Source of the DNA: Nitrospirota bacterium
GTDB lineage: Bacteria; Nitrospirota; UBA9217
Length of the DNA: 64,000 bases
Assembly: GCA_963818475.1 (NCBI GenBank)
Contig: CAWFSF010000006.1
Coordinates: 512,001-576,000 of the forward strand
Reading direction: 5' to 3'
Made by a program: the position numbers and the translations under genes. The notes under the pieces are model-generated. The model had not been told where the DNA came from, made no database searches, and was given only the letters and a program-made list of their open reading frames with translations. Positions 4,686 through 59,028 of the stretch are shown piece after piece (within the stretch, counting starts at the first letter, position 1; each line of letters opens with the position of its first letter).

Positions 4686-6065
<1,380 letters not shown>

Positions 6066-34877: not shown

Positions 34878-34976
34878 TGGCGGGAGAGCATGAGAATCGA
34901 ACTCACCTTTCCTGGCTCACGCCAGGAAACAGCGGATTTGAAGTCCGGGACGGGCACCAGCTCCGTAACCTCTCCC
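34878..34976 (-). tRNA. selC: tRNA-Sec (UCA)
   Basis: Anticodon loop CTTCAAA, long variable arm TTTCCTGGC/GCCAGGAAA, TTCGA T loop, GCCA end. Confidence 0.92.
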
Positions 34977-38775: not shown

Positions 38776-38852
38776 GCCCCTGTAGCTCAGGTGGATAGAG
38801 CAACGGTTTCCTAAACCGTGTGCCGGAAGTTCGAATCTTCCCAGGGGCACCA
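38776..38852 (+). tRNA. tRNA-Arg (CCT); integration site
   Basis: Cloverleaf, anticodon arm ACGGT-TTCCTAA-ACCGT, CCA end. Confidence 0.96.
38808..38852 (+). repeat. attL core (45 bp)
   Basis: TTCCTAAACCGTGTGCCGGAAGTTCGAATCTTCCCAGGGGCACCA, identical to 52631-52675. Confidence 0.97.
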
Positions 38853-38860
38853 ATTTTAAG

Positions 38861-40072
38861 TTATTTCAATGACTTGGATTTAGGAAAAGACAGCAGAACT
38901 TCTCTACCTGGGCCTGTACCTGTGCCTTTGGCAAGGTTTGCAGTCTCTTCTTTATGCTTCTGTTCCAGCTTTTCCCTTAGCTTCCGGTGATACTGCGTCA
39001 CCTTATCCGCAGCCTCTTTTAAATCTTCCTCGCTCGTGATGTTGTACCGGTCGAAGACTGACCGCGTTTTGTGACCGCTTACCCGCATCGCGGTTGTTTC
39101 GGGGACCCCGCTACGTATAAGGTTCCTGACCCCGGTCCTGCGAAGATCATGAAAGAGCTTTTCGCTTAACCCTGCCTGCTTGCACGCTGTTGTCCAGGCC
39201 TTACGGCCGTCCTGCTTGATCTTGTGACCGTCGCGGAAAAAAACATATTGGCAGTCCGGAAATTGCTGCTCATGTAGCGCATACTGATTTGAAATCGCCT
39301 CATAGAGCTCACCCGTGAGGTAAATGATACGCGACTCATCGGTCTTCGTGTTGTCCGCGTCAAGGGTGATCTTGCCTTCCTCGAGGCTTACGTTTTGCCA
39401 GGTAATGGACATGAGTTCACCCCGACGAACGCCTGTGTGATACGCTGTTATCAAAACGGGCTTCAGGTATTCCGGCAGCCTCTCGAGGAGCTTCACATAG
39501 TCGCTGTACTCGAAGAAGCCCTGCCGGGCATTGTTCTCCTTTAGCATGGCGATATGAGGGGGATTGATGACCGTCGGCGGGCTTTGACGGGCGCCCAAGT
39601 TGAACATGCGCCTCAACGCGCTGAGCTCCCGATTTATTGTTCCATTTTCGGCGTCTTCTTTTTGCCGCTTCCGGATGTAGCTGGATATCTGTCCGGACTG
39701 GATATCCGCAACTCTTCTCCCGCCGAAATGCTTTCTCAGGTTGTCTATCAGCGACTTGAGCCGCGATACGGATTTTCTCCCGTTCATCTCGTAGTCATCG
39801 ATCATGTATTGCGCGATGTCGTCAAAGGTGGTTTTCTTGACTGCCAAGCCGGGGAAGGTATTTGTCGCTACCTGTCCTTCCCGGAGTGCCAGGACTTTCC
39901 GCGCATGATCGTAAGACGTTGACTCCGTGCTTTCACGGTACGGTTTCCCGTCCCTGTAATACTTTATCCAGTACGTTTTACCTTCTCGGGTGACGGTCTT
40001 GCCGTTCGCGGCCTTAATGGGCTTACCGTCCGCGTCCTTGCATGCATGTTTACGCTTGAAGATGCTTCCCAT
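38861..40072 (-). CDS. Tyrosine integrase
   Basis: [18 protein letters not shown]...RY catalytic residues; next to attL. Confidence 0.96.
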
Positions 40073-40073
40073 T

Positions 40074-40310
40074 CTATTTGCTCACCTCCTTACCCCTTGG
40101 CGGCCGGCCCCGGAGAGGCTTCTCAGTCCTCTTTTTCGTGCATGCAAGGGCAAGATGCAGAAAAGAGGGGATCTCTCTTTCTCCGTTTTCCCATCGGCTG
40201 ATGGTGACAACAGAGACTCCCAGGACTTTGGCAATCATACTTTGGCTATAGTTGTTTTTCTTTCGCCAAGTCTTGAGATCTTCGGGACTCATGGGGTAAG
40301 TATAATTCAA
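40074..40310 (-). CDS. XRE-family HTH protein
   Basis: [23 protein letters not shown]. Confidence 0.88.
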
Positions 40311-40336
40311 GCATTAACCAAATGTCAATAGATATT

Positions 40337-40597
40337 TTAGAAATGATTTACGGTCTTACGGCTCTCGATCCAACTGTCCATATCGCCTCGGTCTAGATGG
40401 ATACGCCGGCCGTCTTTGATGAAGGGAATCTTCCCGGCCCATAACATTTCACGGACAGCACAGACGGTCCGTCCCAGGTAGTGCGCTGCTTCCGGGATGC
40501 TAAAAAGCCGCTTCGGCAAGAAATCGTCAGTCGCTGCGTTCGTTTTCGTTACATTATCTTTCATCGTATTATTTGAGTTATCGAGTGAACCTTGCAT
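40337..40597 (-). CDS. Excisionase-like HTH protein
   Basis: LFSIPEAAHYLG...GKIPFIKDGRRIHLDRGDMDSWI. Confidence 0.88.
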   Translation of the reverse strand: MQGSLDNSNNTMKDNVTKTNAATDDFLPKRLFSIPEAAHYLGRTVCAVREMLWAGKIPFIKDGRRIHLDRGDMDSWIESRKTVNHF

Positions 40598-40604
40598 AAT
40601 TCGG

Positions 40605-42188
40605 CTACGCCGTTGATATCGTCAGCTGCACGTTCCGGTCGCCTGCCCGGTTAATCGCCGGGATGACCTCGTTCTCCATGAGGCTGTCCCAGTATTCCTT
40701 GGTTCCGAGTCCGTTCTGAACATTGATCGTGATCTGCTGTCCGCCTGCGGCCTTGCTGTCCGCTCCGGCGATCGGGGGCAGGCCCGTTCCCGGGGACACG
40801 GGGTAGGTGCCCACGCCTCCGCCAGCGGAGATGCTGCCGCCCCCGCCGCCTCCTCCGTCCATGCTTTGGGACCGGATGGCCTTGACCTGGGCCATGCCCA
40901 TGGCGATAGCCGCTGCGGCCGCCAGGGCGCCGAGCACGGGGCCGACGTAGGGGATGCTGGCCATGGAATCGAAGGCCTTGATGGCGGCAGAATAGGTGCT
41001 GATCAACGCTTGGGCCGTGGCCGTCGCCTTGTAGATGCTGAAATACTTCCGGGCATGCGCCCCGCCCTGCTCGGACATCATCTTGGCGGCGGTGACGAAG
41101 TTTGTGGCTGCGGCATTGGCGGCCGCGATCCGCATCAGCTTGGTCTTTTCTTCCTGCTGCGCCATCATGGCCTGGCGTGCCATGTCGCGGTTGGCGTACT
41201 CCTGGCTGATGGCGTCCTGCGCGGCCTTGGCATCTCCCCAGGTGGCGGTCTCCTGCTGCAGCCGGGCCATCTTAGCCTCTGCCTGCAGGTCGAACTGGGC
41301 CAGCTCCAGGTTGTCCATCTCCACCTGGCTGGCGCCCTTGGCGGCGATCATGGTTCTGAAGGAGTTTACATATTCGGCGTCTCCTGCGAGGCGGCCGGCG
41401 GCGGTTAACTTAGAAGGGTTATAGTTTTCATAGGTAATCTTATTACTTAATCCCGCACGGTATGTTTGGTCGGCGGCTATCTGCTGCTTCATAATTGCTA
41501 TTGATGCAATGGATTCCCTGTTTTGTTCGCGGATCTGACTGGTACGTTCCTGCTCCATGGCAGCAGTGATGCCATATTCGGCGTCGTACCCTTTCAGTGC
41601 CTCCGTGCTGTACTTTACAACATGAGTTTTGGTTTTAAGTGCATCCTCTAAATCATTGAGCGCTTTCTTCTCGTCCCGGAGTTGTTTATCCATCTCCAAC
41701 TTCAGTAGCTCGCGCTTTGCGAGGAGAAGATTGTATGTGGCTTTCTTAGATTCCTCGGACGCCCCGGAATGGGCATAGAGTTCCTGAACCGCACCACGAA
41801 GCGTTGTTACATTTCGTTGCGTCTGTTCTACATCATGCTTCTTGGCCGCGGCTAAGTGGTTATAAGCCATGACCGACGCGCCAATGATAATCGAGACCGC
41901 TCCAAAGGCAACGGCAAAGCGGCCTGCGCCGGCGACGACGTCTTCAACAACATTGCCGAGCATGCGTGCGGCCTGGCCGGTGATGCCAATTTTCCCCCCG
42001 GCAGTTTCGGCGACCTCGCCCAAGCCCCAAAAGGCAAGTCTTCCAGCAGTACCCGCCTTTTCCGTACGCTTGCCGGTATCCTCGGCCTTATCTCCCATAT
42101 CGCCGATATCGGCCTTGGCCTTACGGAGGGTATCCTCTGCCAGGTTCAACGCCCGGATGACTACCTTAATGTCGCGTTCACTTCCCAT
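40605..42188 (-). CDS. Phage tail tape measure-like protein (527 aa)
   Basis: DIKVVIRA N-terminus, Ala/Gly-rich helical body, ASIPYVGPVLGALAAAAA and ITINVQ C-terminal motifs; follows a chaperone pair. Confidence 0.8.
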   Translation of the reverse strand: MGSERDIKVVIRALNLAEDTLRKAKADIGDMGDKAEDTGKRTEKAGTAGRLAFWGLGEVAETAGGKIGITGQAARMLGNVVEDVVAGAGRFAVAFGAVSIIIGASVMAYNHLAAAKKHDVEQTQRNVTTLRGAVQELYAHSGASEESKKATYNLLLAKRELLKLEMDKQLRDEKKALNDLEDALKTKTHVVKYSTEALKGYDAEYGITAAMEQERTSQIREQNRESIASIAIMKQQIAADQTYRAGLSNKITYENYNPSKLTAAGRLAGDAEYVNSFRTMIAAKGASQVEMDNLELAQFDLQAEAKMARLQQETATWGDAKAAQDAISQEYANRDMARQAMMAQQEEKTKLMRIAAANAAATNFVTAAKMMSEQGGAHARKYFSIYKATATAQALISTYSAAIKAFDSMASIPYVGPVLGALAAAAAIAMGMAQVKAIRSQSMDGGGGGGGSISAGGGVGTYPVSPGTGLPPIAGADSKAAGGQQITINVQNGLGTKEYWDSLMENEVIPAINRAGDRNVQLTISTA

Positions 42189-42615
42189 TCGGCACCTTTG
42201 GCATGTTCTTTTTCCGCCACTCTGCTATCTCTCGCTTGTATAACTCGAAGGCTTCAACGAACCAGCAGGGCTGGTCTATCCACGCGCCGGGAAAGGGCAG
42301 TATCCCGGTCTCTTCCACCAGAAAGCAGAACCGCATGAGCTCCGCCGTCTCCTGCGTGATCCAGTTGACAGGGCATTCATAGAGGCGGATATCTCCCAGG
42401 ATGAAGACCTTGTCGAACCCCTTCATTTCCTCTGCGATTTCTTTTCTTTGCTCCTCGGACATACCCCTGAACACAAAGGCTGTTTCGTCCATCTCTCGCA
42501 GGTTGCCACAGTTACGCTTTTCCTGTTGCCGGTCGGAACAATCGTTACAGTCGAATGGGGGCTTCTGGTCTCCGCTGTTCTTCAGCTGGTAGCGGATGCC
42601 CCCGCAGAGTTTTTC
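42178..42615 (-). CDS. Tail assembly chaperone, T (frameshift-extension) part
   Basis: Frame stays open from the A-run at 42610-42614 into ORF 42178-42492; ECPV and LPFPGAWIDQP motifs; overlaps the TMP start. Confidence 0.65.
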   Translation of the reverse strand, partial: EKLCGGIRYQLKNSGDQKPPFDCNDCSDRQQEKRNCGNLREMDETAFVFRGMSEEQRKEIAEEMKGFDKVFILGDIRLYECPVNWITQETAELMRFCFLVEETGILPFPGAWIDQPCWFVEAFELYKREIAEWRKKNMPKVPNGK

Positions 42616-42997
42616 TCTGGCCCTCGGTAAGCCTGGAGCTGCTTTCCATTGCCATGATGATCTCGGTGATCAGATCGTTGTCCGCGGCGTCATAGAGCTC
42701 CGCAGCGGTGGTGATGGACTTGCCGTCGACCGAGTAGTTTTCGACGCCGACGACGTTCTCGACGAACTGTTGGCGCTGGACCTCGCGCGCGACCCGGGTC
42801 TTGAGTTCGACGCGTTTGTTCACGTCCTTTATCCCCCGAATGTCCTCGCCTACCTTGCGTTCAATAATGTTCGCATAGTGCTGAACACGGGCGAAGCTTA
42901 CAAACTTTGTCTTGATGACACAGGGGTTGTCTGATCCCCGCTCGGATTCGGGGGTGTACTCGATGATAGTATCCTGTGAAAAAGAACTTATGGCCAT
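42545..42997 (-). CDS. Tail assembly chaperone, G part
   Basis: Strong SD; VVGVENY motif; LTEGQRK at an A-run; upstream of the TMP. Confidence 0.65.
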   Translation of the reverse strand: MAISSFSQDTIIEYTPESERGSDNPCVIKTKFVSFARVQHYANIIERKVGEDIRGIKDVNKRVELKTRVAREVQRQQFVENVVGVENYSVDGKSITTAAELYDAADNDLITEIIMAMESSSRLTEGQRKTLRGHPLPAEEQRRPEAPIRL

Positions 42998-43158
42998 GGT
43001 GAATCCTCCTGTCTTGTTGAGTGCAATTTGACCTGTGCTTCTGAGACTGCCGAGGTCGAGTTCTTAAAATCGACGACCGCAAAAACGGGGGACCCCGCCT
43101 GCTTTTTTTTCAGTGTATCGATGGCCAGTTCATTTGCGCTGATGACGGCTGTTACCAT
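42988..43158 (-). CDS. Small hypothetical protein (56 aa), not in the ORF track
   Basis: GAGGAGGT SD, MVTAVISANELAIDTLKKKQAGSPVFAVVDFKNS...WP-stop, fills the operon gap. Confidence 0.55.
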   Translation of the reverse strand: MVTAVISANELAIDTLKKKQAGSPVFAVVDFKNSTSAVSEAQVKLHSTRQEDSPWP

Positions 43159-43217
43159 TAGACCTCCTCATAGTGGTTCATTCACCCAGTTGCCGAATCC
43201 CGTCCTGGGTATGACCT

Positions 43218-43745
43218 TTATTTGTTCTTGTTAATTTCCTTTGATATTTCATCTTCGATGACACGCTGAATCTGCGCGCCCTGGTTAAAATGGTTGAGCG
43301 CATCACGCAACGCGTCACGCGGGCCGAACTTGGCGGAGCTGCCGAGGCCGAGGAAGATGGCCCGGGCGTAGGATGCGGAGTTGAAGACCACGACCTCGTC
43401 GGGACCGGCATCGAAGCTGCCGGCGTCTCCGGATTTCGATTCTCCAGGATTGAGCCAGGCGAGACTCGATCGTAGATGACCCGTTACTCTCGGGACAGGA
43501 TATCCACCGGGCCGAGCCGTCAATAAATCAGATTGACCGCGCAATCTCGATTTTTTATGCTTGTCCGTATCCCGCAGACGCACCTGGGACTGAGCGCCGC
43601 CGGTTAACCATCGAAAGGCTTCTGCGTATATCCCGCCGCCGATGCGCGTGAGCCCCCTCCGAACCGCCCCTGGCAGTGCTTCGGATAGATGGTCTAAGTT
43701 AAAGATGACGTTTTTGTTTTCAACGGTGACTTTAACATCAATCAC
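43218..43745 (-). CDS. HK97-gp10-like tail completion/neck protein
   Basis: TGHLRSSL, VVVFNSASYA, GPRDALRDA match the TGxLxxS / YA / PRxFL pattern. Confidence 0.65.
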   Translation of the reverse strand: MIDVKVTVENKNVIFNLDHLSEALPGAVRRGLTRIGGGIYAEAFRWLTGGAQSQVRLRDTDKHKKSRLRGQSDLLTARPGGYPVPRVTGHLRSSLAWLNPGESKSGDAGSFDAGPDEVVVFNSASYARAIFLGLGSSAKFGPRDALRDALNHFNQGAQIQRVIEDEISKEINKNK

Positions 43746-44593
43746 TTGCGATCCCCCTGATCCCCCACAATACCGGTGCCGCTGGACTGCTGGCGGTCCT
43801 GGATGCTGCCGGCGGTCGCTTGCTCGGAATCACGCATGGCTTCAATCGAGAAGGGCGAGCCCTTCATGAAATCAACAAGAACAGGTTTTTCCCTCGGCAT
43901 GGGAGGCTGAAAAACAACTTCCCCGTCCCCGCCGGTGATGACTTCCGATCCGTGGGCCTCTTCCGTGGCGACGCCATGGTCGTAGCCGGTGCCGCTGGCG
44001 GTCGCTTGCTCGGAATCAGCCGGTTCAAGCAGGCCTTCGATCTCTTTTACGGCCTGCGATATTTCAGCCTTCGACGGCCCGCCGAACTCCAGCGTCCGTA
44101 AAAAGATATCCCAATCAAACGTACTTCCCACAGAATTTCCGTTCGCCGCGGAAAGATAAATATATGCCCGCCTGATGAGCGGCAGGTGTCTCCGAAGCGC
44201 GTCACGCTCCTCTTCGTACGCCGCCCGGTAGACGGCTGCACGGGCGGCCTCAACGGGATGGGCTCTGCTCGGATCATACAGCGATTCTAACTTTGTTATC
44301 TCCTTTCCGATCGCCGAAATCATCAATTCAGTTGTAGCCAAGGCCTGAGCAGCTGTCGTTCTCTGCGCATTTATCTGATCGAGCTCCTGAGGAGACACTT
44401 CGCCAAGGACAATTTTCACGCCTATTTCATCGGCTTTAGCTTCGACTGCAGAAAGAGCATTCCTTAGCAGGGGCACATTTTCCTGTAGCTCCGCCTGTTT
44501 GTCATGATACTTGACGACTTTTGCTGTCCTTGCTTTATCAGCTTCAAAAACTTTTTGAAACACTGTGATTGCACCCTGCCTCAACTTAGTCAT
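43742..44593 (-). CDS. Hypothetical coiled-coil protein
   Basis: 283-aa ORF, SD AGGAGG, helical N-terminal half, DSEQATA repeated twice. Confidence 0.7.
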   Translation of the reverse strand: MTKLRQGAITVFQKVFEADKARTAKVVKYHDKQAELQENVPLLRNALSAVEAKADEIGVKIVLGEVSPQELDQINAQRTTAAQALATTELMISAIGKEITKLESLYDPSRAHPVEAARAAVYRAAYEEERDALRRHLPLIRRAYIYLSAANGNSVGSTFDWDIFLRTLEFGGPSKAEISQAVKEIEGLLEPADSEQATASGTGYDHGVATEEAHGSEVITGGDGEVVFQPPMPREKPVLVDFMKGSPFSIEAMRDSEQATAGSIQDRQQSSGTGIVGDQGDRK

Positions 44594-44608
44594 ATTATTC
44601 CTCCTTCG

Positions 44609-44749
44609 TTATTTCTTCGGCGCCAGCAGGCTCGGCCTCTTATCGACTTCCTTTTTCTTTTCCCTCGGCGCCAGCAGGCTCGGCCTCTTATCGACTTCCT
44701 TTTTCTTTTCCCTCGGCGCCAGCAGGCTCGGCCTCTTATTTGTGCTCAT
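44609..44749 (-). CDS. Basic repeat peptide (46 aa), not in the ORF track
   Basis: AGGAGG SD; MSTN-(KRPSLLAPREKKKEVD)x2-KRPSLLAPKK. Confidence 0.6.
   Translation of the reverse strand: MSTNKRPSLLAPREKKKEVDKRPSLLAPREKKKEVDKRPSLLAPKK
44617..44739. repeat. Perfect 48-bp tandem repeat, about 2.6 copies
   Basis: Units start at 44617, 44665 and 44713. Confidence 0.95.
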
Positions 44750-44809
44750 AACGGGTTTCCCCTCCTTTTTATTGCTACCTGTATTTTACTGAGTGCCTAT
44801 CTCCTGTCG

Positions 44810-45097
44810 TCAAACTGCCTCATGGTTGAGTGTATCTTTCATTGCTCGACGCAATGTCATGACGCGGTCCTTCAACTCCTTCAAGCAGTGATTAAAATCG
44901 CCAATAGGAATCGGCACGTTTGCTCGATATGCCGCCATGGAAGCACGCACCTCCTGTGTATCAAAAAACATTATCCGGAACCGACCGCTATCGTTCGGGA
45001 TGATCCCGTATCGGCAATTTCGATTAATTGCAATGACAGCTGCCGCCTCAGAAAGGTCTTCGGTTTCCACGATTTTTGCTGCTGCTTCTTTTTTCAT
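44810..45097 (-). CDS. DUF5659-like phage/satellite protein
   Basis: ETEDLSEAAAV...F...LKELKDRV pattern recalled for DUF5659. Confidence 0.55.
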   Translation of the reverse strand: MKKEAAAKIVETEDLSEAAAVIAINRNCRYGIIPNDSGRFRIMFFDTQEVRASMAAYRANVPIPIGDFNHCLKELKDRVMTLRRAMKDTLNHEAV

Positions 45098-45115
45098 TTT
45101 CTACTACCCCCAAAA

Positions 45116-45426
45116 GTAACGGGCTCCGCCAGGACCAGGCAACCGGACATGGGATGTACGGAAGTTTCCCGACTTCCGTAACCAGGAGGTACCAGCTTCC
45201 TGGTCCTGGCGAAGCCCGCTATTCATTGAATCACGTCGAGACCGGAGCGGAACTTGAGAAGTCGGGAGGGAAAAGCTCCCGCTTGAAGGAGAAGAACCGC
45301 CCCGGTCTCGACGTGATTCAATGCAGCACATGCGTTTCAAAAAACAAAAAACCGGAGTCCGTAACAGTTCCGCTTGCGCGGTTGCCATGGGGGCTCCGGT
45401 TCCAAAACCTACGCAGAAGACTGCGT
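45116..45426 (-). ncRNA. Candidate structured leader/ncRNA with three large hairpins
   Basis: Stems 45120-45139/45199-45218, 45224-45245/45302-45323 (22 bp perfect) and 45350-45360/45391-45401. Confidence 0.6.
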
Positions 45427-45534
45427 CAGGCAATATTAAATATGATGTTGTTTTGTCGTTTCGCATAATTCGCTCGGTAAACTAATCTGCCGAAAAATTA
45501 GCACACGACTTGGGAATTGTATATCGGAAGTTGA

Positions 45535-45557
45535 GGTATCAGTTTGAAACTGATACC
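45535..45557. promoter_or_regulatory. Perfect 11-bp inverted repeat, candidate operator
   Basis: GGTATCAGTTT-G-AAACTGATACC. Confidence 0.5.
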
Positions 45558-45594
45558 AAGGCATGGCAGGGGAACAGGTGATGAAGCAGAAAGA

Positions 45595-46653
45595 TCAGCT
45601 TTTTCGTTCACGCTCTAATAGTTTTCTGATTGACTCGATCTGCTCGGGTTTATTGCCTGATAATAAAAAATCGGTCAGTAATTCCTGCTCGATAAATTTC
45701 CGCGGATCCCCTAGAAGAATGTGTAGAGTATCTTTCTTTATGAGCGGTATGAGGCGATGATCTATCGGATGGATTTTCTTTTCCCAATTCGGCGTATTTA
45801 TCGTTATGGTTTCTTTGGGGAAGGCTTCTCTGTAGTTACGATGCATGCTCCAAGCAATCGGCAGGAGAAAATGTACAAGGCCGGAGATATATAGTGTTTC
45901 AGGAATTTCACTTTGCTTGACAGCTGCACGGTTTTTATAAACAGAATCAACGAATCGGGCTGCGTCTTTCTTTTCTTTTAATGTTCCATGAAACATTTGA
46001 ATATATCTTTTTTCAAAGTGCTTTCTTAATAATATTATGCCAGGTTTTCGCGACTGAAAAAACGTCTGCATACTTCGAAGAGCTTTTGTGACTATGAGGT
46101 CCATCCTGTCGGAATGACGTTTTAAAAAAGCTGGTGATGCACGTTTGCCGAGGTAATCAAGATCGTCTTGTAAAGATAGTGCTTCAAAATCAGAAAAGCT
46201 CGCACCGTCAATATATTTCCCATTATTGATTTCCTCCTGGACGCGGTCCAGAACTTGTTTAAAACTTAACTGTTCATCATACTTTGTTTTTCCATCGACT
46301 ATGAATATAAAGAACTTATCTTCGTTTCGATGTTTGGTTCTTTTTTCCCTAAACCCATATCGCTTAAATTCAAAACAGTGACTTTTCCCGGTCAATGGGT
46401 ATGCTATAAAAACGCCACCGTGGGGAAAATGTTTTTTATCGGAACTGTCTTTGAAAAAGGGATATCTTATATTAAAGCTCTTGTCAAAAAGATCCCTTGT
46501 ACTTCTGCTTTCTTCTTCTAGCTGGGCTATCCAGTCGTATCCAAGGCAATCAGGCGGGATTTCATTGCGGGCACGCTCGGCGAGTATAAGATCCTCTTCA
46601 AGGGTATCTGGATTGCGTCCATATCGATCCTCTACAGCCTTATCCTCTCTCAT
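45595..46653 (-). CDS. Hypothetical AT-rich cargo protein (352 aa)
   Basis: Long ORF with visibly lower GC; no motif recognised. Confidence 0.75.
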   Translation of the reverse strand: MREDKAVEDRYGRNPDTLEEDLILAERARNEIPPDCLGYDWIAQLEEESRSTRDLFDKSFNIRYPFFKDSSDKKHFPHGGVFIAYPLTGKSHCFEFKRYGFREKRTKHRNEDKFFIFIVDGKTKYDEQLSFKQVLDRVQEEINNGKYIDGASFSDFEALSLQDDLDYLGKRASPAFLKRHSDRMDLIVTKALRSMQTFFQSRKPGIILLRKHFEKRYIQMFHGTLKEKKDAARFVDSVYKNRAAVKQSEIPETLYISGLVHFLLPIAWSMHRNYREAFPKETITINTPNWEKKIHPIDHRLIPLIKKDTLHILLGDPRKFIEQELLTDFLLSGNKPEQIESIRKLLERERKS

Positions 46654-46774
46654 CTCATCCGCCCTCCGGGTGCGGCCTCCGAAAGATGGAACAGGGGGAA
46701 GCCGATCGGAGTATCGGTTTTCGCCCGGGGTTCGACGCCCGGGCTATCCCCCTAGTGCAACGCTTAACACCTTT

Positions 46775-47014
46775 TCATCTGGACGTTTTGCTGCGTCTTG
46801 ATCCGGATCCCGGGGCCGGGATCGGCCAGCCTTCTTCCTTGAATACTGCGAGCACGGCGGCAAGTGCCTTTTTGCCGTCTTCAAGGGCTTCTTCCTCGGT
46901 TTCGCCGTCGCCTATACACACGTCGAAATCAGGATAACTGATCAGGAAGCCGCCGCCTTCTTCCTGGGTAAGCGGACGGATCTCGTAAGGATATTCGGGG
47001 ATATCTATCGGCAT
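46775..47014 (-). CDS. HicB-family antitoxin (short form)
   Basis: EEGGGFLISYPDFDVCIGDGETEEEAL...GWPIPAP. Confidence 0.85.
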   Translation of the reverse strand: MPIDIPEYPYEIRPLTQEEGGGFLISYPDFDVCIGDGETEEEALEDGKKALAAVLAVFKEEGWPIPAPGSGSRRSKTSR

Positions 47015-47274
47015 TATCGATACACGTCCTTCCTATGGCCGATCTTCTCGACATAGACGGTCTCATCCCGGTCATCGATCCGGTATATGACCCGGTATGG
47101 CCGGACGTACATCTTCCACAGGCCTTTGTATTTACCCTTGAGCGGCTCACCGCTCTTGCGCGGGGCGCCGGCGAGCGTGGTCATGACGGCGTCCAGGATG
47201 CGTTTTCGCTGAACGGCGTCGATGCGCTTCAGGTCCTTTTCAATTCGCTCATGGTAGACGATGTTATACGCCAA
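47014..47274 (-). CDS. RelE/ParE-family toxin
   Basis: KDLKRID, GEPLKGKYKGLW, YRVIYRID, IGHRKDVYR. Confidence 0.9.
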   Translation of the reverse strand: MAYNIVYHERIEKDLKRIDAVQRKRILDAVMTTLAGAPRKSGEPLKGKYKGLWKMYVRPYRVIYRIDDRDETVYVEKIGHRKDVYR

Positions 47275-47473
47275 GACGCTTCCTCATATCCTTGTCCGTG
47301 ACATACTTCGCGTTGGGGTTTCGGCTGCGCTCGAGGGCTTCCTCGTAATCCGCGATCTCCTCGAGGTGCAGTTCCAGTGCCTCGCGCGCGAAGTAGCTTT
47401 TTGACCGCCGGTACTTCTTTGCCAGCTCCGCCAGTCGCTTGTCCAGTTTTTCGTCTATTCTCACGCCCAACAT
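47264..47473 (-). CDS. Ribbon-helix-helix antitoxin (RelB-like)
   Basis: MLGVRIDEKLDKRLAELAK...RSKSYFAREAL; overlaps the toxin start. Confidence 0.88.
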   Translation of the reverse strand: MLGVRIDEKLDKRLAELAKKYRRSKSYFAREALELHLEEIADYEEALERSRNPNAKYVTDKDMRKRLGV

Positions 47474-47521
47474 GTAAAACCTCCATTTCGCGGTCCCGCG
47501 TCGATCGTTGAGACCGTCTTT

Positions 47522-47559
47522 TGTTTAGTCATGTTAAGCTATGTTTAACATATTGTCAA
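47522..47559 (-). promoter_or_regulatory. Sigma70 promoter of the TA operon with overlapping operator repeats
   Basis: TTGACA-N17-TAACAT on the minus strand; repeated T(A)AACA(T) units. Confidence 0.7.
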
Positions 47560-47646
47560 GCCGTTTTAAGATGGTCGTGAGCGTGACAGGCGTTACGCAG
47601 CGTGACCACCTGTAACGCGGTTCATTCGGCTTCATCCTGTGACGCT

Positions 47647-48297
47647 TCACCGGCCAAAGATAGCCGGTGTCCTATGTAGGCGTATATCATGATAATGCAC
47701 GTTATCAAAAGTTAAGTCCGCCCGAAAGCTCATATCTAAAGGTTCCGCATCGTCCGATCGTTTGAACACGATAGCGACTTGGAATGGACTGCCCGTGACT
47801 TTCAGCAATCGTGACATTTTCCCAATTTCTATAGCATCGGGCTGAATACCAAGATGGAAGAACTTTGGATGAGACGAATAAACGGGCTCGCCGGCGTCAA
47901 TACGACAATGATCTCGGATATGAGGTGCATTCGCCCATCTCGATGAATCCATAACAACATGGCCGCGCGTAATGACGAGTGCTTTCCCGTCCCCCAGATG
48001 ACATCTTAATATCCCTAAAAAACGTAAATTATTACCTGACCAGAAATGCCGGACCATGTTTTTTTCATCCAGCCCAACGGCAGATCCAGTGCACATGATT
48101 TCATTGGAATCATCACAAGAAAAAATTTCAAACCTGTGTTTAGGCCCTATCTCGTTCACGCTGCCGATACGCCAGCCGTGAAATTCCTTTATCTGTGTAA
48201 CCGATTCTAGGAGATTCAGCTCAGGTAGTAACTCGATATCTCCAATTTTTATAAGATAAGGATCAATAAAATCGTCCATGTCTTTCCCCCGTACCAA
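47647..48297 (-). CDS. Hypothetical cargo protein (216 aa)
   Basis: Long ORF, lower GC, no motif recognised. Confidence 0.7.
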   Translation of the reverse strand: MVRGKDMDDFIDPYLIKIGDIELLPELNLLESVTQIKEFHGWRIGSVNEIGPKHRFEIFSCDDSNEIMCTGSAVGLDEKNMVRHFWSGNNLRFLGILRCHLGDGKALVITRGHVVMDSSRWANAPHIRDHCRIDAGEPVYSSHPKFFHLGIQPDAIEIGKMSRLLKVTGSPFQVAIVFKRSDDAEPLDMSFRADLTFDNVHYHDIRLHRTPAIFGR

Positions 48298-48354
48298 TTC
48301 TGATGTCGAAAACTTGGCTACGTGACGCGCGTGACTTGACCGTGACGTAGTTAT

Positions 48355-48807
48355 TCATCCCTGCTCTATGATATTATTGATTTGGGTTACGCTCAACTTA
48401 AAGCGGAGTGCGATTTCTTTATGATTGGTCCCGTTGTAAATAGCACAGATCTTCAAGTTTCTTTCCATGCGATAGAGCGTTTCAATATCCGGGAACCAGA
48501 TCCGGCGGCCTCCGAGCTCGCAGACGATCTTGTGCATGATCGCGCGGCCGGAAGCCTGGCCTAACTCCTGGCAAGTGGTCATCCAGAGTCTCCTGAAGCA
48601 TGCGCTGCAGCCGTGCAGCGGATCGTTGCTGAGCGAGGCATGCTGATTGAGCCCCGGGTTGTTTGTTGGAACGCGGATACGCTGCCCTCCGGCATGGGAC
48701 ACAAGGTGCTCGATAATCTTTTTGCCGGCGGCTTCGCCATAATCTTTGACAAAACCCTGAAACAGCCGCGTGACAATCACGCGGTTTTGCCGGCGAGTAT
48801 CATTCAT
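48355..48807 (-). CDS. Mor/C-family transcription activator
   Basis: ELGGRRIWFP, ERNLKI...YNGTNHKEIALRFKLSVTQINNII. Confidence 0.8.
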   Translation of the reverse strand: MNDTRRQNRVIVTRLFQGFVKDYGEAAGKKIIEHLVSHAGGQRIRVPTNNPGLNQHASLSNDPLHGCSACFRRLWMTTCQELGQASGRAIMHKIVCELGGRRIWFPDIETLYRMERNLKICAIYNGTNHKEIALRFKLSVTQINNIIEQG

Positions 48808-49771
48808 CAGCCACGCATTTTCGTGACATCGACATTTTATTAAAATCCACCCAGTAATCAGAAAGCGATTCATTTTTCTGGATGCTTGTATCGCGTTGAG
48901 TGAAGTATCGAGCAACGGAGTCGAGACGAACAAATCCCATCCGCTTCATGATCTCCTGCACGTCGAAACCGTGGATACACTGCAGGTCCAGGACATGCCT
49001 TGCCCTGAGCATGTGAGTCGAGGCCATAGGTTTCTGCATCCCGGCACGGCCGGCTAGGTTGATCACGAGATTGTAACAGGCTTTTGCAGTCAGGCGCTGG
49101 TTGCCCCTGGGCTGTCCGTTTTTCTTGTAGCTCACCAGGAGCGGGTCGCCTTTCTTGGCGCCCTGGACCAGGCGAGCGCTCAGAAGCGATCGTACGATCG
49201 TACTTGGTTCCTCCCACAGGGCTACTGTACGGTTACCGCCCGTATTGTTTTTGACGATATTCAGGCTGACGCAGCGCCCATCGTCCGCTATTTGCCCCGT
49301 GTTGAGATCCGTTATCTCTGCAACCCGTAGGCCGGCGAAGACGCCCATGACCAGAAAGACGACGTCGCGGAGGCCCTTCTCCGTTGAGCTGTCGATCGCG
49401 CTGAACAGCTGCAGGACCTCGGCCCGCGTGAAGCTGTACAAGGGGTCGTTGCCGGAGTCCGGGCGGTCGATACCCGCGGTTGGGTCGAGCGCGATGATCC
49501 TGGAATGGATCAGGTACCTGAAAAAGGCCTGAAGCGCGCAAAGTTTAAAGTTGCGCCGCTGATTGCCATTTCCAAGGGCCTTGCAGGCCTGCAGGTAGAG
49601 TCTTACGTCTCGCTCCGTTGTTTCCAATACAGGGCCGTCCTGCGAAGCCTGGGCACGCCAATTGGAGAACTGGCGGATGCAGGTCAGATACCGTTTGCAG
49701 GACGATGGTTTCAATCCCCGAAATTCCATCAGCCATCGTTCGAAGAGATTCAAATCAAGATTTATATTCAT
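48800..49771 (-). CDS. XerC/D-like tyrosine recombinase
   Basis: N-terminal SAM-like domain, AGLRVAEI, THMLR, MGF...ARY. Confidence 0.88.
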   Translation of the reverse strand: MNINLDLNLFERWLMEFRGLKPSSCKRYLTCIRQFSNWRAQASQDGPVLETTERDVRLYLQACKALGNGNQRRNFKLCALQAFFRYLIHSRIIALDPTAGIDRPDSGNDPLYSFTRAEVLQLFSAIDSSTEKGLRDVVFLVMGVFAGLRVAEITDLNTGQIADDGRCVSLNIVKNNTGGNRTVALWEEPSTIVRSLLSARLVQGAKKGDPLLVSYKKNGQPRGNQRLTAKACYNLVINLAGRAGMQKPMASTHMLRARHVLDLQCIHGFDVQEIMKRMGFVRLDSVARYFTQRDTSIQKNESLSDYWVDFNKMSMSRKCVADE

Positions 49772-50257
49772 GCGCTCCCCCGTGCCCCCACTTTTTCACG
49801 ATTCACAATTCAAAATCTATCAAACGAAGATCACTTTCAGCCAATAACAAAAAGGCTTTTAGACTACACCCCAATTTATAAGCAGCAATGAGGGTCGTAA
49901 TCGCGACTGAGACTGATATTTTCCAAGGGGGGTAGGCTACCCCATGTGCTGATCACTGTCTGGATTTAATTTGTACTTCACCTTTCAATAGGTTCATCAC
50001 GTTTCTACCATTGATTCTATTAATGTTTATCACTGTATTGCTTACGGCAATGGCGCTTATTGTAGAAAAGTGCCATTGAGTTCGGCTGTAATCCGGCTGT
50101 ATTACCCGTCACGAAACGACCCATACGCCACAGACCGACCACACAGACAAAACGGAGAATAGACTTTAACCAACAACCACGGACTTAGAATCAACATATC
50201 AACCTCAAAACTACTTAGAATAAAATCACCCTGTAGAATCCTTTTTTCATTCGATGA

Positions 50258-51055
50258 TCAGGCAGTCGTGGCCTTGCCCTCGAAGCTGGCAATCTCAAGA
50301 ACTGTGTACCGAGTGACGAACTCTTTACGCAGCTGGTCTCTATCTTGTCCATAAAGCTCCCTGATCCGGTCTGAACCACCCAGGTCAAAGAATATCTTTT
50401 GAGACAGAGCGTCTCTGACAATTAACTTCTGACCAGGCGGCACATTCAAATCCTCCTCGAATTGCTTCCATGCATTATCAGCTTTTTCGTAGGAAATAAG
50501 CTTCCGTGGCGAATGATTCACCTCCCTCCCTTTAGAAGGTAAAGGCTGGGGTAAAGGCTGGGGCAAAGGCTGGGGCAAAGGCTGGGGAGTATTAGAATTA
50601 GTATTATGATCGGATACAGGTGGTATACTACCTGTATCCTTATTATCTGGTTGTTCTTTTGGGGTTTTCTTGCGTTTCTCGGTTTTCCAACGTTTTGCGA
50701 TGTTCTCCCGCGCCACCTTAGACCGCACGTCAGAATAGAAAACCCATCCCTGGTGTTTGCTCCAATTGTGAATCAAAGTTCGCCCTTTTTTGTCCTTATT
50801 GAGGAAGTTCATACCAGGTGTATACAGGTCGTTTACAAAGGCCATACAATCTGAATCACGGCCTGTGGCAATTTTCCATTCAGTCTCATCGAAGTCGGTC
50901 AGGTTTCCTTTCCGTGCATGCTCTGCCGCATACGCCCAGAGACGGAGAATGGAAAAGGCGCCATCGGTCCCGTACTTTGCAATGATCCTTCTCGTTTTAA
51001 TGTGGTCGAAAAACGACAACTTCACGCGGATATCATCTGGCATAGAGAAAACCAC
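50258..51055 (-). CDS. Phage replication initiator/replisome organiser-like protein
   Basis: FFDHIKTRRI...LRLWAYA N-terminus, PQPL linker repeats, DUF6475-like C-terminus (LGG...KEF...Y). Confidence 0.7.
   Translation of the reverse strand: MVFSMPDDIRVKLSFFDHIKTRRIIAKYGTDGAFSILRLWAYAAEHARKGNLTDFDETEWKIATGRDSDCMAFVNDLYTPGMNFLNKDKKGRTLIHNWSKHQGWVFYSDVRSKVARENIAKRWKTEKRKKTPKEQPDNKDTGSIPPVSDHNTNSNTPQPLPQPLPQPLPQPLPSKGREVNHSPRKLISYEKADNAWKQFEEDLNVPPGQKLIVRDALSQKIFFDLGGSDRIRELYGQDRDQLRKEFVTRYTVLEIASFEGKATTA
50538..50587. repeat. 12-bp tandem repeat x4 encoding PQPL
   Basis: GG(T/C)AAAGGCTGG x4. Confidence 0.9.
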
Positions 51056-51067
51056 TCCTTAAAGAGT

Positions 51068-51116
51068 ACTGCTCCAGGTGGTTGCCCTTCGTGGCATGGT
51101 CACCACCTGGAGCAGT
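51068..51116. other. 15-bp inverted-repeat hairpin between the recombinase and rep genes
   Basis: ACTGCTCCAGGTGGT...ACCACCTGGAGCAGT. Confidence 0.7.
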
Positions 51117-51124
51117 CAAATTAC

Positions 51125-51751
51125 TCATAGGGCTTTCAACAACCCCTCGGCTCGAGCCGCTCCGATCGTGAGCACATGTACTGCTTGCTCCATCTCCTGG
51201 TCCGTGGCCTCCGTATAGATCCCCGTTGAGGCCAGTGAGGAGTGACCGAGAAGCTTCTGGATCGTGGTGATAGGTACGCCCCGCTCCTGCATCCTTTTGG
51301 CGAAGGTGTGCCGTAGTGAGTGCGTTGATTTATTCGCGACAATCTTTCCCTTACGCGTGGTTGTGATGCCGGCCTTGATCATCCATTTCTCGACCAGGTG
51401 CTGGAGCGATCGTTTCTCTATCCGCCCACCCAGGCGAGAAACGAACAGCGGGGCCAAATCCTCGATGCTCTCTTGCAGAGTATTCATCTTGTATGCAATC
51501 CACTTATGCAAGATGTCCTGGATCCGGATGTTTAGATTGATGTCCCTTCCTCGGCCGTTCTTCATGTCTTCCTGTCGCACATGGAGCTGTTTCTTATTAC
51601 GAACATCGGACACAAGGACGGCAACCAGCTCGCTGGCCCGCAGCCCCGTATTCAGGAGCAGCTCGATAATCACATGGTCACGTTCGGCACCCTTTGTTTC
51701 CCGGACTGTTTTTAGGAGCTGCTTTTCCTCAGATGGAGTAAGATATTTCAT
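51125..51751 (-). CDS. Short tyrosine recombinase (catalytic domain only)
   Basis: TGLRASEL, HSLRH, LLGH, TGIY. Confidence 0.92.
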   Translation of the reverse strand: MKYLTPSEEKQLLKTVRETKGAERDHVIIELLLNTGLRASELVAVLVSDVRNKKQLHVRQEDMKNGRGRDINLNIRIQDILHKWIAYKMNTLQESIEDLAPLFVSRLGGRIEKRSLQHLVEKWMIKAGITTTRKGKIVANKSTHSLRHTFAKRMQERGVPITTIQKLLGHSSLASTGIYTEATDQEMEQAVHVLTIGAARAEGLLKAL

Positions 51752-51839
51752 GACTATTTCTCCTTACGCGGAGGGCCATACACTTTGCCCTCGATGTCGA
51801 TCCGGATACTGACCAAGAAATCCTGTTTGGCCTGCTGCT

Positions 51840-52166
51840 CTATGCGCCAGTTCTTAGCTTTTGATTATGCTTCCACTTTTCATCGATGATTGTTTTGACC
51901 ATCTTCTGGAGATCATCGAATCTTTCTTCAAAAAGATACATCGTTGATCCGACGTGTTCTCTATAGAACGATTCATCGTACAGGTCCGCCTCGAGGGCCG
52001 CATGAACAACGCGGATGAGCGAACGAATTTCAGTTAACCGAAGCGGAATTTCGTTCAGCAAGTCAGGGTCTGTGTGGTCTTTTCTTACCCCGCGGAGCAG
52101 CACCTCAACTGCATTTTCATTCTTCTTCTGATTTCCAACCCGTTTTACCATCTGACGTGCATTCAT
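51840..52166 (-). CDS. Hypothetical protein
   Basis: 108-aa ORF with SD AGGAG, co-oriented with the element. Confidence 0.6.
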   Translation of the reverse strand: MNARQMVKRVGNQKKNENAVEVLLRGVRKDHTDPDLLNEIPLRLTEIRSLIRVVHAALEADLYDESFYREHVGSTMYLFEERFDDLQKMVKTIIDEKWKHNQKLRTGA

Positions 52167-52240
52167 GTGTGTTCTCCTCTCTCTCTGGCCGTTCCGGCCA
52201 TCTCCTTAAGGTTGGCCCCCGGTCTCCCGGGGGCCCGGTA

Positions 52241-52474
52241 TCATGCAGCCTGTTCCTTACTTTGTCGCCAAATCAAATGGCCCGCGTCGACGCCGGCGAA
52301 GAAAGCGTCCGCTGCAGCGGTCCCGACGCGGTATGGTAGAACAATCTTCTTGCTCTCCAGCCGAAATGCGAGCGCCGCGCGTACCCCGCCCCAATACTCG
52401 GCGCTTCTCGGTGTTCGTGGAACGTTGAAATTTTTATTGAACAGCTCTTCGACGGTCATGGCAAATCCCTCCAT
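52241..52474 (-). CDS. Hypothetical phage-type protein
   Basis: 77-aa ORF, co-oriented with the element. Confidence 0.55.
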   Translation of the reverse strand: MEGFAMTVEELFNKNFNVPRTPRSAEYWGGVRAALAFRLESKKIVLPYRVGTAAADAFFAGVDAGHLIWRQSKEQAA

Positions 52475-52630
52475 TCTTACCTGTACCCTTAACTGTGCCT
52501 GCGAGGCTTAATCTCTGTCTGATTCGTGCTGACTCCATCTGACATAGAGAATACCAATACCCTTTAGAAAACAGCTTTTACCGCGTAATATCAGCGGCTT
52601 TGAATATGTGTAAAAAGTACCTTTAAAGTA

Positions 52631-52675
52631 TTCCTAAACCGTGTGCCGGAAGTTCGAATCTTCCCAGGGGCACCA
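52631..52675 (+). repeat. attR core (45 bp)
   Basis: Identical to the tRNA-Arg 3' half at 38808-38852. Confidence 0.97.
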
Positions 52676-55636: not shown

Positions 55637-56718
55637 ATGATTGCCAAGCGGATAGTAAGCGGAATGGTCGGACTCGGCTTCCTTCTCATCGGGGGGACGG
55701 CATGGGCTATTGACCCGCCGCACAGCGGTCCGAAAAATCCTCAGACCTGCATGGCCTGCCATGTGGCCCACTCTGCGGCAGGGGTATCACTCACTACGGT
55801 AAATGGAAACGCAAACCTCTGCATCAGCTGCCATACCAGCGGCGGCACTGCATCCAACAAGCCCTTTTCAAGCACGATGCAGGCAGTACCGGGAGTGTCC
55901 GGCAGTTCGCACCGATGGGACGGCGCCATGCCTGCTGTATCAAGCCCAAGCAACACCTACGGACTGCGGCCTGCATCAAGCGTTACGACCACGGTCATTC
56001 GAAATAAGCTCACGAATAAGTTCAGCGGGGTAGCTGTATGCTCCGTGTGCCATAACCCCCATAGCTCGGCAAGTGCCGCGTGGGACGTCTTCTCGGGCTC
56101 CTTATACCGGCCTCAAGGGCGGAGATTCAGGTGCGGCAAGCGCTTCCGGCACCACCGACGACGATCATCGACTCCACCAAATCGACCTTCTGGACCGTGA
56201 ACGCGTGGCAAAATTATTTCGTGAGGATCGTTTCATCGGGAGCGGCGAACAATATTGGACAGGTAAGGATCATTTCCAGCAATACAACCACACGGCTCAC
56301 CGTTGCTTCAGCCTATCCCGCGGCTGTCCAGTCGGGCGACAAATATGAGATCGTCGGCAGACATTTTCAGATCACGGCCGATGACGTCAACCAGATGTGC
56401 GAAGACTGCCACTACTACCGGGTCCAGAACCACTCGCGCGTCGAGGGTGGGGATGCGGCCTATCCTGCCGATGGGATCAACGTCTTCAGCCATCCCGTGG
56501 GACAGGCGCTGAACGGCAACGGAAAGAGCTATGACCGGTCGGCGCCCCTTGACGTGAACGGCGTTGCCCAGAGCGGCGCCCGGTTTGCCTCCGGAGGGGA
56601 ATCACCCGACAACGTTGCAAATAATCTCGTTTTGGACAGCGGTAATGCAGTACGCTGCCTCACCTGTCATAGAGTACACTACACTGACTCAAATGGTCTG
56701 TCGAACGGGTTGCCGTGA
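55637..56718 (+). CDS. Pentaheme cytochrome c (two indels near 56102 and 56156)
   Basis: Signal peptide; CMACH, CISCH, CSVCH, CEDCH, CLTCH across three frames. Confidence 0.8.
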
Positions 56719-56731
56719 TGAGGAGAAGAGC

Positions 56732-59028
56732 ATGAATCGGCGGAATACTTATTTGAAGAAGTGCGCGTTCGCTATGATCCTTCAATTGGCGGTTTTTGCG
56801 CTTGCTGCGCAAGTCCTTGCCGCTGATGGAAAACCTCCGACCGTAAGCATCCTGAACCCGAAACCCGGTACGGCCTTGGCGCCGACAATCGTCAGCCTTC
56901 GTCCCTCGTCCAACGATTTCAAGGTCCAGATCCAGGTGTGGGACGACGTTGCCATCACCGCCAACACCATCCAGGCAGGATACTATACGGGCGCAACGCC
57001 CGACTCCGGGACGTTTACGTTTGTGACCGCAACGCTCAATACGAATTACAACTGCGGCGCTAACTGCGTCGTGTACGAGGCGATCCTGAGCGGCCTTACG
57101 CCGGGCGTTGATTACTTCCTCTATGCGCGGGCGTCATCAACGGACGGGACTGGTGAGTCACGCCAGAACCGTACGGGAAACGATGCGCGGTATACCGCTA
57201 TACGGGTCGTTGCCGCGAAAGCGGGAACCGGAATGCTTCTGGCACGGGATTCATCGAGCCAGCTCTGTCTCGATTGTCATAACCTCCCATCCCATTCCAG
57301 CCAGGCGCTGGGAGTGAAGTATCAGAATTGGCAGACGGTCTGTCTCGATTGCCACACGCCGCACAGCACGAGAAATCTCTATCTCGTGAAAGAATCCGTC
57401 ATAACGCCCAATAGCGGGGCTAAAAACGTCACGCTCTACAAGACCACAGGCGACGCCGTGAACAGTTATGTCACCTCAACGGCAAGCGCCTCCACGAAAG
57501 GCATTTGCCAGGTCTGTCACACACAGACTAAAAACCAGTCCACGCTGGCCACACGATGGACCAACACCGGCAACGCCGACGCGACCCACTACCAGACAAC
57601 GAGCACCAAGCGATGCACGGAATGCCACAGCCACACCAGCGGGTTTCGCGCCTTCAGGCGCATGTAAAAGCTGCCACAATGTTGCGCGGGGAAGCAGGAG
57701 GCAGATCGTAGAGTTAACGTCCGGGCGATGGGACAGGAGATTTTGTGAAATCATCGAGGCACGTCAGCAACGGAACAACAAACGAGATCGTGACGGATTT
57801 CGACTGCATCGTCTGTCACGCCGAGGGCGACACGGGTTCGAGCGGCACGAACATCAAGGCCATTGGAAGTCTGCATCCATCATCCAGTTCACCGGTCAAA
57901 CTGAGGAACGTGGACAATGTGGCGGCTCCCGGCTCGGCCGGGACTCTTGGCAGTAACTACTGGGCCTGGCCGGGGACCTCCTCCGCAACGGACACGGACC
58001 GGAGCAATATGGACAGGTTCTGCCTGAACTGCCATGATTACGATGGTGCCAGCGGAATCAATGTTAAGTCCTCTGATGACGGTCTGAACCTCGACGCAAC
58101 GCGGAAGACCACTCCGTTCAACAGTAAGGACACCTTGACGAACAACAGAGATAAACTTACGAGGACCAGGATCACGGACGTTAAAAGCCAGTTTTATGCC
58201 GGCACCGGCGGATCGGGCACGGGGTACAACGGAAATCCTTCTCAGCATGGCCTTGTCGCTCTGGGCACGGGCTACGATACCGGGCCGAGATATTCAACTC
58301 AGAATTCGACCTGGGCCACCGCATGGAACGGGACCCATACGCTCAGATCAGGAACGGCGATCAACAATGCGACGAACGGCAGAGAAAAAGCCACGCTTCA
58401 CTGCTCAGATTGTCACCTTATTGAGACAAATGCACACGGTGCAACCAATGCGTGGCATCTGCTTTTGTCGGGAACTGCGAGCAACTGGACCAGTGACAGC
58501 GTCATGGGCGGTCAGGCGAGCAGCGTTACGGCCGCGGTCGTATGCTACAAGTGCCATCTCCAGACAGTTTACGACACGAATGGAGCAAAAAGCGGAGCCA
58601 AACAGGCTGTAGGATCCAGAATCAATCACCTCGATATCGATTCGAACGTGCATGTTACGTATGGAAGCGCCGCGACCAATCCCGCAGGCGCAGGCGCTCA
58701 ACTTGGACCCTTCTGCCTCTTGTGCCATGCAGGCGACGGTTTCGGACGCATCCACGGCAGGGGGTCGGCGACAGACGGCGACAATACGCAATATAACCCC
58801 GCTGGAGATTCAGCAAACGGCACGTACACAAAGTATCGTTTCCTGCCCGGCGCGTGGATGACGTGGAAGCCAGGAACAGTCGGTGATAATACTGATTTTA
58901 CAGCAGTCAGATCGGGGACCTGTTACTTCCAGGCTGCGGGCCAGACGATGTCGAGTTGCAGTCATCATGCTGCGGGCGATAATGCGGCCGGACAGACCAC
59001 GAATTACGGACGCAACGTTACTTACTGA
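56732..59028 (+). CDS. Large extracellular multiheme cytochrome c with Ig-like N-terminus (indels near 57646 and 57724)
   Basis: 10 CxxCH motifs over ORFs 56564-57667, 57468-57956 and 57745-59028, plus terminal CYF...SSCSHH. Confidence 0.8.

Follow-up and report, generated by a model that had tools for sequence, protein, structure and literature searches.

The leader that precedes the structural operon of the island described here is a real, previously undescribed and conserved structured RNA of a rare family of tRNA-integrated, phage-like islands, and it is of a known general kind. It lies in the window, that is, the whole 64,000-nt stretch of contig CAWFSF010000006.1 that was analyzed, at the junction between the part of the island that holds the 352-aa gene, which would be its regulatory part, and the structural operon. 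As minus-strand RNA, the leader runs from a small hairpin to hairpin C with its U-run, then to hairpin B, hairpin A, a Shine-Dalgarno-like run and the first ORF (Table 1). Comparison of the window with two related islands makes it likely that the conserved entity is the structure of the minus-strand RNA.

Anatomy of the leader and its island

Hairpins A, B, and C and the small hairpin, which had been placed here by a first-pass annotation, were all present with coordinates within a few bases of its own, and the perfect 22-bp stem that it gave for hairpin B was confirmed in the sequence as the initial part of the arms. A and B are the only inverted repeats in the 64-kb window with arms of at least 30 nt. 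In the minus-strand fold, hairpin A forms a 23-bp outer helix and inner helices, with TACGGAAGT/ACTTCCGTA as its inner hairpin, and it carries CCUCC in an internal loop at 45185-45189. The outer helix of hairpin B is 27 bp long on this strand, and its pyrimidine-rich interior leaves CUCCU unpaired at 45287-45291. Hairpin C has a three-tier stem consisting of an outer tier of 7-10 bp, a middle tier of 5 bp, and an apical tier of 4 bp closed by a GCAA loop; the U tract 3' of it on the minus strand, which had been reported as giving it a terminator-like form, was found as described. The GGGGG run starts 6 nt past the foot of hairpin A. Farther upstream, the perfect palindrome at 45535-45557 stands approximately 135 nt before hairpin C on the minus strand and has no U-run after it; from its sequence, it may be a protein-binding site or operator. 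An imperfect palindrome lies at a similar distance in the related island of genome G033 (locus L012, approximately 5790-5813).

Table 1. Positions, in the window, of the leader elements and of other features of the island
Feature	Position	Strand	Remarks
Hairpin A	45117-45221	-	Arms 45117-45146 / 45192-45221, 30 nt, 83% complementary
Hairpin B	45224-45323	-	Arms 45224-45255 / 45292-45323, 32 nt, 91% complementary
Hairpin C	45350-45401	-	Arms 45350-45360 / 45391-45401
U-run UUUUUUGUUUUUUG (minus-strand sequence)	45336-45349	-	Immediately 3' of hairpin C
Small hairpin ACGCAG/CUGCGU, 6 bp	45405-45426	-	Immediately 5' of hairpin C on the minus strand
GGGGG Shine-Dalgarno-like run	45107-45111	-	9 nt before the ATG at 45097; read from the sequence
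Perfect palindrome 11-1-11, GGTATCAGTTT-g-AAACTGATACC	45535-45557	.	Between the 352-aa gene and the leader
Island, 13.8 kb	38808-52675	.	45-nt direct repeats at both ends
Integrase	38861-40072		Next to the tRNA
First ORF after the leader, 95 aa	44810-45097	-	Orphan
352-aa gene	45595-46653	-	Directly upstream of the leader
int-alpA RNA motif RF02996	46676-46754	-	43.2 bits, gathering score 35.8, E 1.3e-5
HicB-like	46775-47014		
ParE	47014-47274		
RHH	47264-47473		
Mor-family protein (activator)	48355-48933		
Further tyrosine recombinases	48800-49771; 51125-51751		

The direct repeats that bound the island lie at 38808-38852, which is the 3' end of tRNA-Arg-CCT, and at 52631-52675. Most island genes belong to no known family, and those near the leader are all on the minus strand. 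The 352-aa protein had no Pfam, PHROG, NCBIfam, PADLOC, PDB-sequence, or PDB-fold match at E ≤ 0.001 and gave no hint of a regulator. Its AlphaFold model has a mean pLDDT of 68, with a well-predicted helical C-terminal half, and its family is very small, as a search of 1.84 billion cluster representatives at E ≤ 0.001 gave 9 members. The 352-aa gene starts 23 nt after the end of the int-alpA match; at the gathering score, neither of the related loci (L012 and L013) gave such a match.

On the other side of the leader, the 95-aa gene had been called DUF5659-like by the first-pass annotation, but no DUF5659 match was found for it. It is followed by genes for proteins of 283, 175, 150, and 104 aa, for which no family match was detected, and then by a gene for a 527-aa protein with a tape-measure-like PHROG match (E 7.5e-17). 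The earlier label of a morphogenesis operon can therefore draw on this one match, but the other downstream proteins match nothing, and the label is weakly supported. Between the 95-aa and 283-aa genes, at 44612-44755, there are three tandem 48-nt units (100%, 96%, and 67%), which on the minus strand encode repeated KRPSLLAPREKKKEVD within a 46-aa ORF. We considered these repeats as the remnant of a gene like that for a 312-aa protein of the related genome G002, the repeated basic C-terminus of which looks alike by eye; this idea was abandoned because tblastn found no similarity. Elsewhere, the window contains a tRNA-Sec gene (34878-34976, minus strand) and multihaem cytochrome genes (55637-57667).

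Fold stability and strand preference

The 341-nt stretch 45100-45440 folded on the minus strand with −185.3 kcal/mol (z −14.0), which was not equaled by any of 100 shuffles, and on the plus strand with −165.1 kcal/mol (z −9.8). All four long hairpins of the three loci compared (A and B in the window and one each in G002 and G033) were more stable on the coding strand than on the opposite strand because of G-U pairs. The energies were −71.3 versus −59.0 kcal/mol for hairpin A (5 G-U pairs), −65.5 versus −63.3 for hairpin B (1 G-U pair), −63.1 versus −51.3 for the G002 hairpin (4 G-U pairs), and −46.7 versus −30.0 for the G033 hairpin (10 G-U pairs). Whole leaders behaved in the same way, with coding and opposite-strand values of −167.8 and −153.4 for the window and of −94.2 and −76.2, and −92.1 and −72.6, for the relatives. 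The first-pass annotation had stated that A and B favor the minus strand and C the plus strand. This is correct at the window locus, where the plus strand gives C a slight advantage in stability (−27.9 versus −24.8), whereas hairpin C in both G002 and G033 favors the coding strand.

All four long hairpins contain CCUCC, and in all four CUCCU is unpaired in an internal loop. Each hairpin on its own yielded CCUCC in 444-558 of 2000 shuffles (22-28%), and the joint probability is approximately 0.004, a rough product of these shuffle frequencies for C-rich sequences in which CCUCC is not rare.

Leaders of related islands

Genomes G002 (locus L013) and G033 (locus L012), from other genera of the family, each have a syntenic island; both islands were reached through the 283-aa and 352-aa proteins, and the comparison took in these two loci and the window. 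Both islands adjoin a tRNA and an integrase, and the gene order of recombinase, 352-aa gene, leader, and structural genes is common to the three loci. The 352-aa gene occupies the same position in G033 (38% identity) and is split in G002 into ORFs of 246 and 158 aa. From the 352-aa homologue to the first structural gene, the sequence folds significantly on the coding strand in G002 (z −6.0) and in G033 (z −5.7). In each, a three-tier hairpin with a U-run is followed by a single hairpin of approximately 100 nt, a Shine-Dalgarno sequence, and an ATG, and the window departs from this layout only by having two long hairpins instead of one. The first ORF after the leader differs between the loci, those of G002 and G033 having no detectable relation to the 95-aa ORF, and the leader is kept.

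The three-tier hairpin followed by a U6-(G/A)-U-run was found in three of three loci, with a stem of 17-23 pairs, and according to the helix lists the outer-stem pairs of hairpin C differ between loci by two-sided changes (A-U/G-C and G-C/A-U). Spacing is similar as well: in all three loci the U-run lies within about 15 nt of the long hairpin, and the foot of the hairpin lies 19-30 nt from the start codon. The outer helices measure 23 bp in hairpin A, 27 bp in hairpin B, 9 + 16 bp in G002, and 6 + 20 bp in G033.

The sequence of hairpin A shows clear homology to that of the only long hairpin in G002, with a local alignment z of 8.0. In their alignment, 24 base pairs are common to both hairpins and all remain paired: 14 are identical, 4 differ at one position of the pair, and 6 differ at both positions. 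This outcome was equaled by only 4 of 500 shuffles, and 0-1 compensatory pairs survived when the partner was displaced by 1-3 columns. This covariation comes from one sequence pair, and is thus suggestive rather than statistical proof. Hairpin B appears weakly similar in sequence to the single long hairpin of G033 (local alignment z 3.7), and MAFFT did not give a structure-consistent alignment of the two. The MAFFT alignments of hairpin C and of B with the G033 hairpin were out of structural register, and these helices are therefore described from single folds. No similarity was found when A and B were compared with each other. In genome G020, a partial 352-aa homologue has no structured stretch beside it (z −1.3). 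An A-type covariance model (R1), run on 64 genomes, matched the window and G002 only; the next match, in G050, lay inside a 349-aa coding gene.

Database and genome searches

The claim of the first-pass annotation that the RNA is undescribed agrees with the cmscan results. With 4227 Rfam families, including c4- and CI-type ones, on both strands of 44000-46500 at E ≤ 10, nothing matched in the hairpins, and the sole match in that range was a chance one to snoU105B at 44491-44568. A scan of the whole window at the Rfam gathering thresholds likewise gave nothing in the hairpin region. The leader is single-copy in its own 4.66-Mb genome, and it had no BLAST match in 63 other genomes of the family and no match, as DNA, in phage and plasmid records.

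Protein-based searches added little. A word-indexed search with the 95-aa and 352-aa proteins returned only the proteins themselves, and a scan of genome contigs with the 95-aa protein returned nothing. The contig scan with alignment A2 gave the G002 contig again and nothing else, whereas viral-contig scans with alignments A1 and A3 and a metagenome-contig scan with A3 gave no match. The degenerate pattern G-L-x-H-F-L-L-x-I-A-W picked out 13 metagenome stretches, none of them related according to tblastn, and no viral stretches. Among 401 sampled genomes of the phylum, A1 revealed no further island and A3 gave one weak extra match. A passage of PMC13612085 has no bearing on this leader RNA.

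Ninety-eight hairpins of −55 kcal/mol or lower in the own genome (G000) include several multi-copy families of long palindromes with 21, 9, 8, 4, and 3 copies, which are dispersed, MITE-type in appearance, and unrelated to A and B. An apparent array of 16 long hairpins in that genome (G000:C6, approximately 1,998,700-2,002,900; L046, 2874-6862) turned out to be a CRISPR array with 68 repeats of 29 nt and a period of approximately 61 nt. Its 67 spacers had no match in the window, L012, or L013 (best 16 of approximately 32 nt).

Complementarities between the hairpins

The three cross-complementarities described by the first-pass annotation are exact and measure 10 nt between A and B, 9 nt between B and C, and 8 nt between A and C. 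When each domain was shuffled independently 2000 times with dinucleotides preserved, these lengths were reached or exceeded in 17 (A-B), 38 (B-C), and 212 (A-C) of the 2000 shuffles, and all three pairings were at least 8 nt long at once in 1 of 2000. The combination is therefore unusual and unlikely by chance, whereas the 8-mer by itself is at chance level.

In the minus-strand RNA, however, the mean probability of being unpaired is 0.14-0.51 for the six complementary segments, and the apical loop of A alone offers five free bases. As the segments are mostly base-paired within hairpins of −65 to −72 kcal/mol, they are not free or kissing loops. Moreover, because each relative has one long hairpin, an A-B pairing cannot be a feature of the family. 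In G002, hairpin C and the long hairpin are complementary over 8 nt, a length reached by 35 of 1000 shuffles, and the 3' half of C is involved there, as against the 5' half in the window. In G033, the complementarity spans 5 nt, and 996 of 1000 shuffles had one as long. Thus, the conservation looked for by the first-pass annotation is seen in the compensatory changes of hairpin A relative to G002 but not in the cross-pairings, which are not conserved in the homologues. Its proposal of a switch or an assembly through mutual pairing of hairpin interiors is not supported on the same points, namely, the mostly paired segments, the one long hairpin per relative, and the nonconserved complements. 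Hairpins A, B, and C of the window have short direct repeats (D3 and D5) in common, and direct repeats shared between hairpins give rise to complementarities automatically. The cross-complementarities of the window are probably by-products of modules shared among the hairpins and not a working switch.

Proposed role of the leader and alternative explanations

In all three loci, hairpin C combines a G+C-rich stem with a U-tract directly after it on the transcribed strand, as expected of an intrinsic terminator. Hairpin C with its U-run is thus a putative intrinsic terminator, which would work on the minus strand only. A simple terminator scan missed it because the loop limit of that scan is 8 nt. 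A simple promoter scan of 45100-45600 found no promoter, and the short spacing between C and the long hairpins would leave no room for one, so that transcripts entering the operon are predicted to initiate upstream of C and to pass through it. This need for read-through would make C a gate for late or structural expression, and antitermination control at C, independent of the cross-pairings, is possible. The host encodes an RNase III (domain score of 142 bits, above the cut-off), and the long hairpins offer what this enzyme cuts, near-continuous dsRNA of approximately 20 bp or more. Their helices of 21-27 bp would be dsRNA of the size cleaved by RNase III, and the long hairpins probably set the 5' end, the stability, and the translation of the first gene. 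The exposed CCUCC loop perhaps pairs with the nearby Shine-Dalgarno sequence or ribosome-binding site.

We give somewhat less than an even chance to the full statement that this is a cis-acting minus-strand 5' leader in which an intrinsic terminator and RNase III-type hairpins control entry into the operon. The specific mechanism of a terminator gate combined with RNase III cleavage, which is predicted from sequence features, is more tentative, and we would put it at roughly one chance in three.

Alternative readings differ in what they make of the complementarities and of the hairpins themselves. An antisense immunity switch of the P4 CI or P1 c4 type would use a short RNA with its 3' end at C, or C as part of the leader, to pair with the interiors of B and A and so stop or allow expression of the operon. 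The layout, in which an RNA would end at a terminator and have its targets farther along the same leader, does resemble that of c4 and CI, and the exact C-B, C-A, and A-B complementarities, jointly so rare in shuffles, would be explained. The energy of the C-B duplex was matched by 6 of 300 shuffles only, and the 8-nt complement in G002 points the same way. Such a switch is nevertheless distinctly unlikely: no c4- or CI-like family matched at the permissive E-value, the pairing segments are mostly buried inside very stable hairpins, the G033 complement is of a length that nearly every shuffle attains, the half of C that pairs is not conserved in position, and the targets lie away from the ribosome-binding site. 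Even less probable, in our estimate, is that the interiors of terminator C and of the long hairpins exchange partners, during transcription or after RNase III cleavage, and thereby gate the structural operon while the CCUCC loops titrate ribosome-binding sites. The complementarities would then be functional, the relatives with one hairpin would be simpler versions, and the whole would be an RNA-only gate of a satellite-like island.

If the long hairpins were instead palindromic insertion units (MITE-, ERIC-, or Correia-like), merely co-transcribed and without a dedicated function, their modular pattern would follow, with B and A in the window, the A-type only in G002, and the B-type only in G033, and the host genome does harbor multi-copy families of long palindromes (21, 9, and 8 copies). 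We consider this unlikely because A and B are single-copy in that genome, are absent by BLAST from the 63 family genomes and from phages and plasmids, and are found by model R1 in the window and G002 only. They also keep a fixed position beside the same terminator and operon start in three islands; six pairs are compensatory, and the strand bias from G-U pairs is consistent. That bias would equally arise in folded single-stranded DNA, which tolerates G-T wobble and would favor the same strand, and this counts against reading the hairpins as RNA. Three adjacent strand-specific hairpins and three tyrosine recombinases in the island could accordingly be taken for a priming or origin signal (a G4-type three-hairpin ssi) or a recombinase substrate. 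The conserved U-run and the fixed short distance to the Shine-Dalgarno sequence and ATG, however, fit RNA and not DNA. The recombinases score at most 52 bits against integron-integrase cut-offs of 265 and 435, and a test for integron attC sites, which have cores RYYYAAC / GTTRRRY, found no integron integrase, no cassette array, and no fit of the hairpin feet to these cores. No word of 9 or more nucleotides is shared with the att sites, and the shared 8-mers are no more than chance would give (348 of 500 random windows). A DNA signal is thus very improbable. A candidate guide-like complementarity of the region to the att sites was rejected, being at chance level. Finally, the hairpins could be incidental to a real gene, the 120-aa ORF at 45104-45466 on the minus strand, which starts with ATG and stays open for 120 codons. 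Neither a family or PHROG match nor a homologue was found for it, the homologous stretch has no coding-strand ORF of at least 60 aa in G002 or at least 70 aa in G033, and base pairing is preserved by the nucleotide differences that separate the window from G002. This ORF, coding selection on which would have spoken against an RNA according to the first-pass annotation, is almost certainly not a gene.

Should the proposed leader control be true, the leader would be a new conserved structured motif among the few RNA elements through which phages and phage-like islands gate late or structural expression. Its source is an uncultivated lineage, and hardly any gene of these islands has a known function; the motif would be a handle for finding and orienting such islands, in which it marks the regulatory junction. 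It could also serve as a compact test case in which a terminator, a dsRNA hairpin, and an anti-Shine-Dalgarno loop would couple termination, processing, and translation.

Comparison with known systems

A test against phi29-type packaging RNA (pRNA), a multimer joined by complementary free loops, gave no Rfam match, and the complementary segments lie largely inside helices. ERIC and Correia elements are imperfect intergenic palindromes of approximately 100-130 nt that are multi-copy, dispersed, and co-transcribed and can affect mRNA stability. The long hairpins are like them in being imperfect intergenic palindromes of approximately 100 nt that fold as RNA hairpins, but A and B occur as single copies and keep to one syntenic position. 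Control by c4 and CI relies on the exposed loops of a small RNA, which have complementarity, retained in relatives, to repeated targets within the leader. The P1/P7 c4 and P4 CI systems share with the island a leader RNA in the operon of a mobile element, with short complementarities further along the leader; in the island, by contrast, the leader has no Rfam match, the complementarities lie in stems and are not kept in G033, and the ribosome-binding site is not covered.

RNase III hairpins stand before ribosome-binding sites in phage leaders, as in the lambda N leader and at the intergenic R sites of T7. The island leaders may be analogous, with a long near-perfect helix of approximately two turns or more just upstream of the ribosome-binding site and an RNase III in the host. 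They differ in that their hairpins are longer (approximately 100 nt, with inner helices), have no sequence in common with the lambda and T7 sites and no Rfam model, and are cleaved by prediction. In lambda late control, the Q gene is followed by the PR' promoter, a short 6S transcript that ends at tR', and then the late genes. The antiterminator encoded just before the terminator works at a site near the promoter and thereby lets RNA polymerase pass tR'. The island would parallel this Q-PR'-tR' arrangement, with a regulatory gene, a short structured stretch with a terminator, and then a structural operon, late expression of which would need read-through. Unlike in lambda, no Q-like protein or qut-like site was identified in the island, and lambda is without a pair of hairpins of approximately 100 nt between tR' and the first late gene. 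In kind, the leader is no surprise: phage biology offers many long leader hairpins and many terminators.
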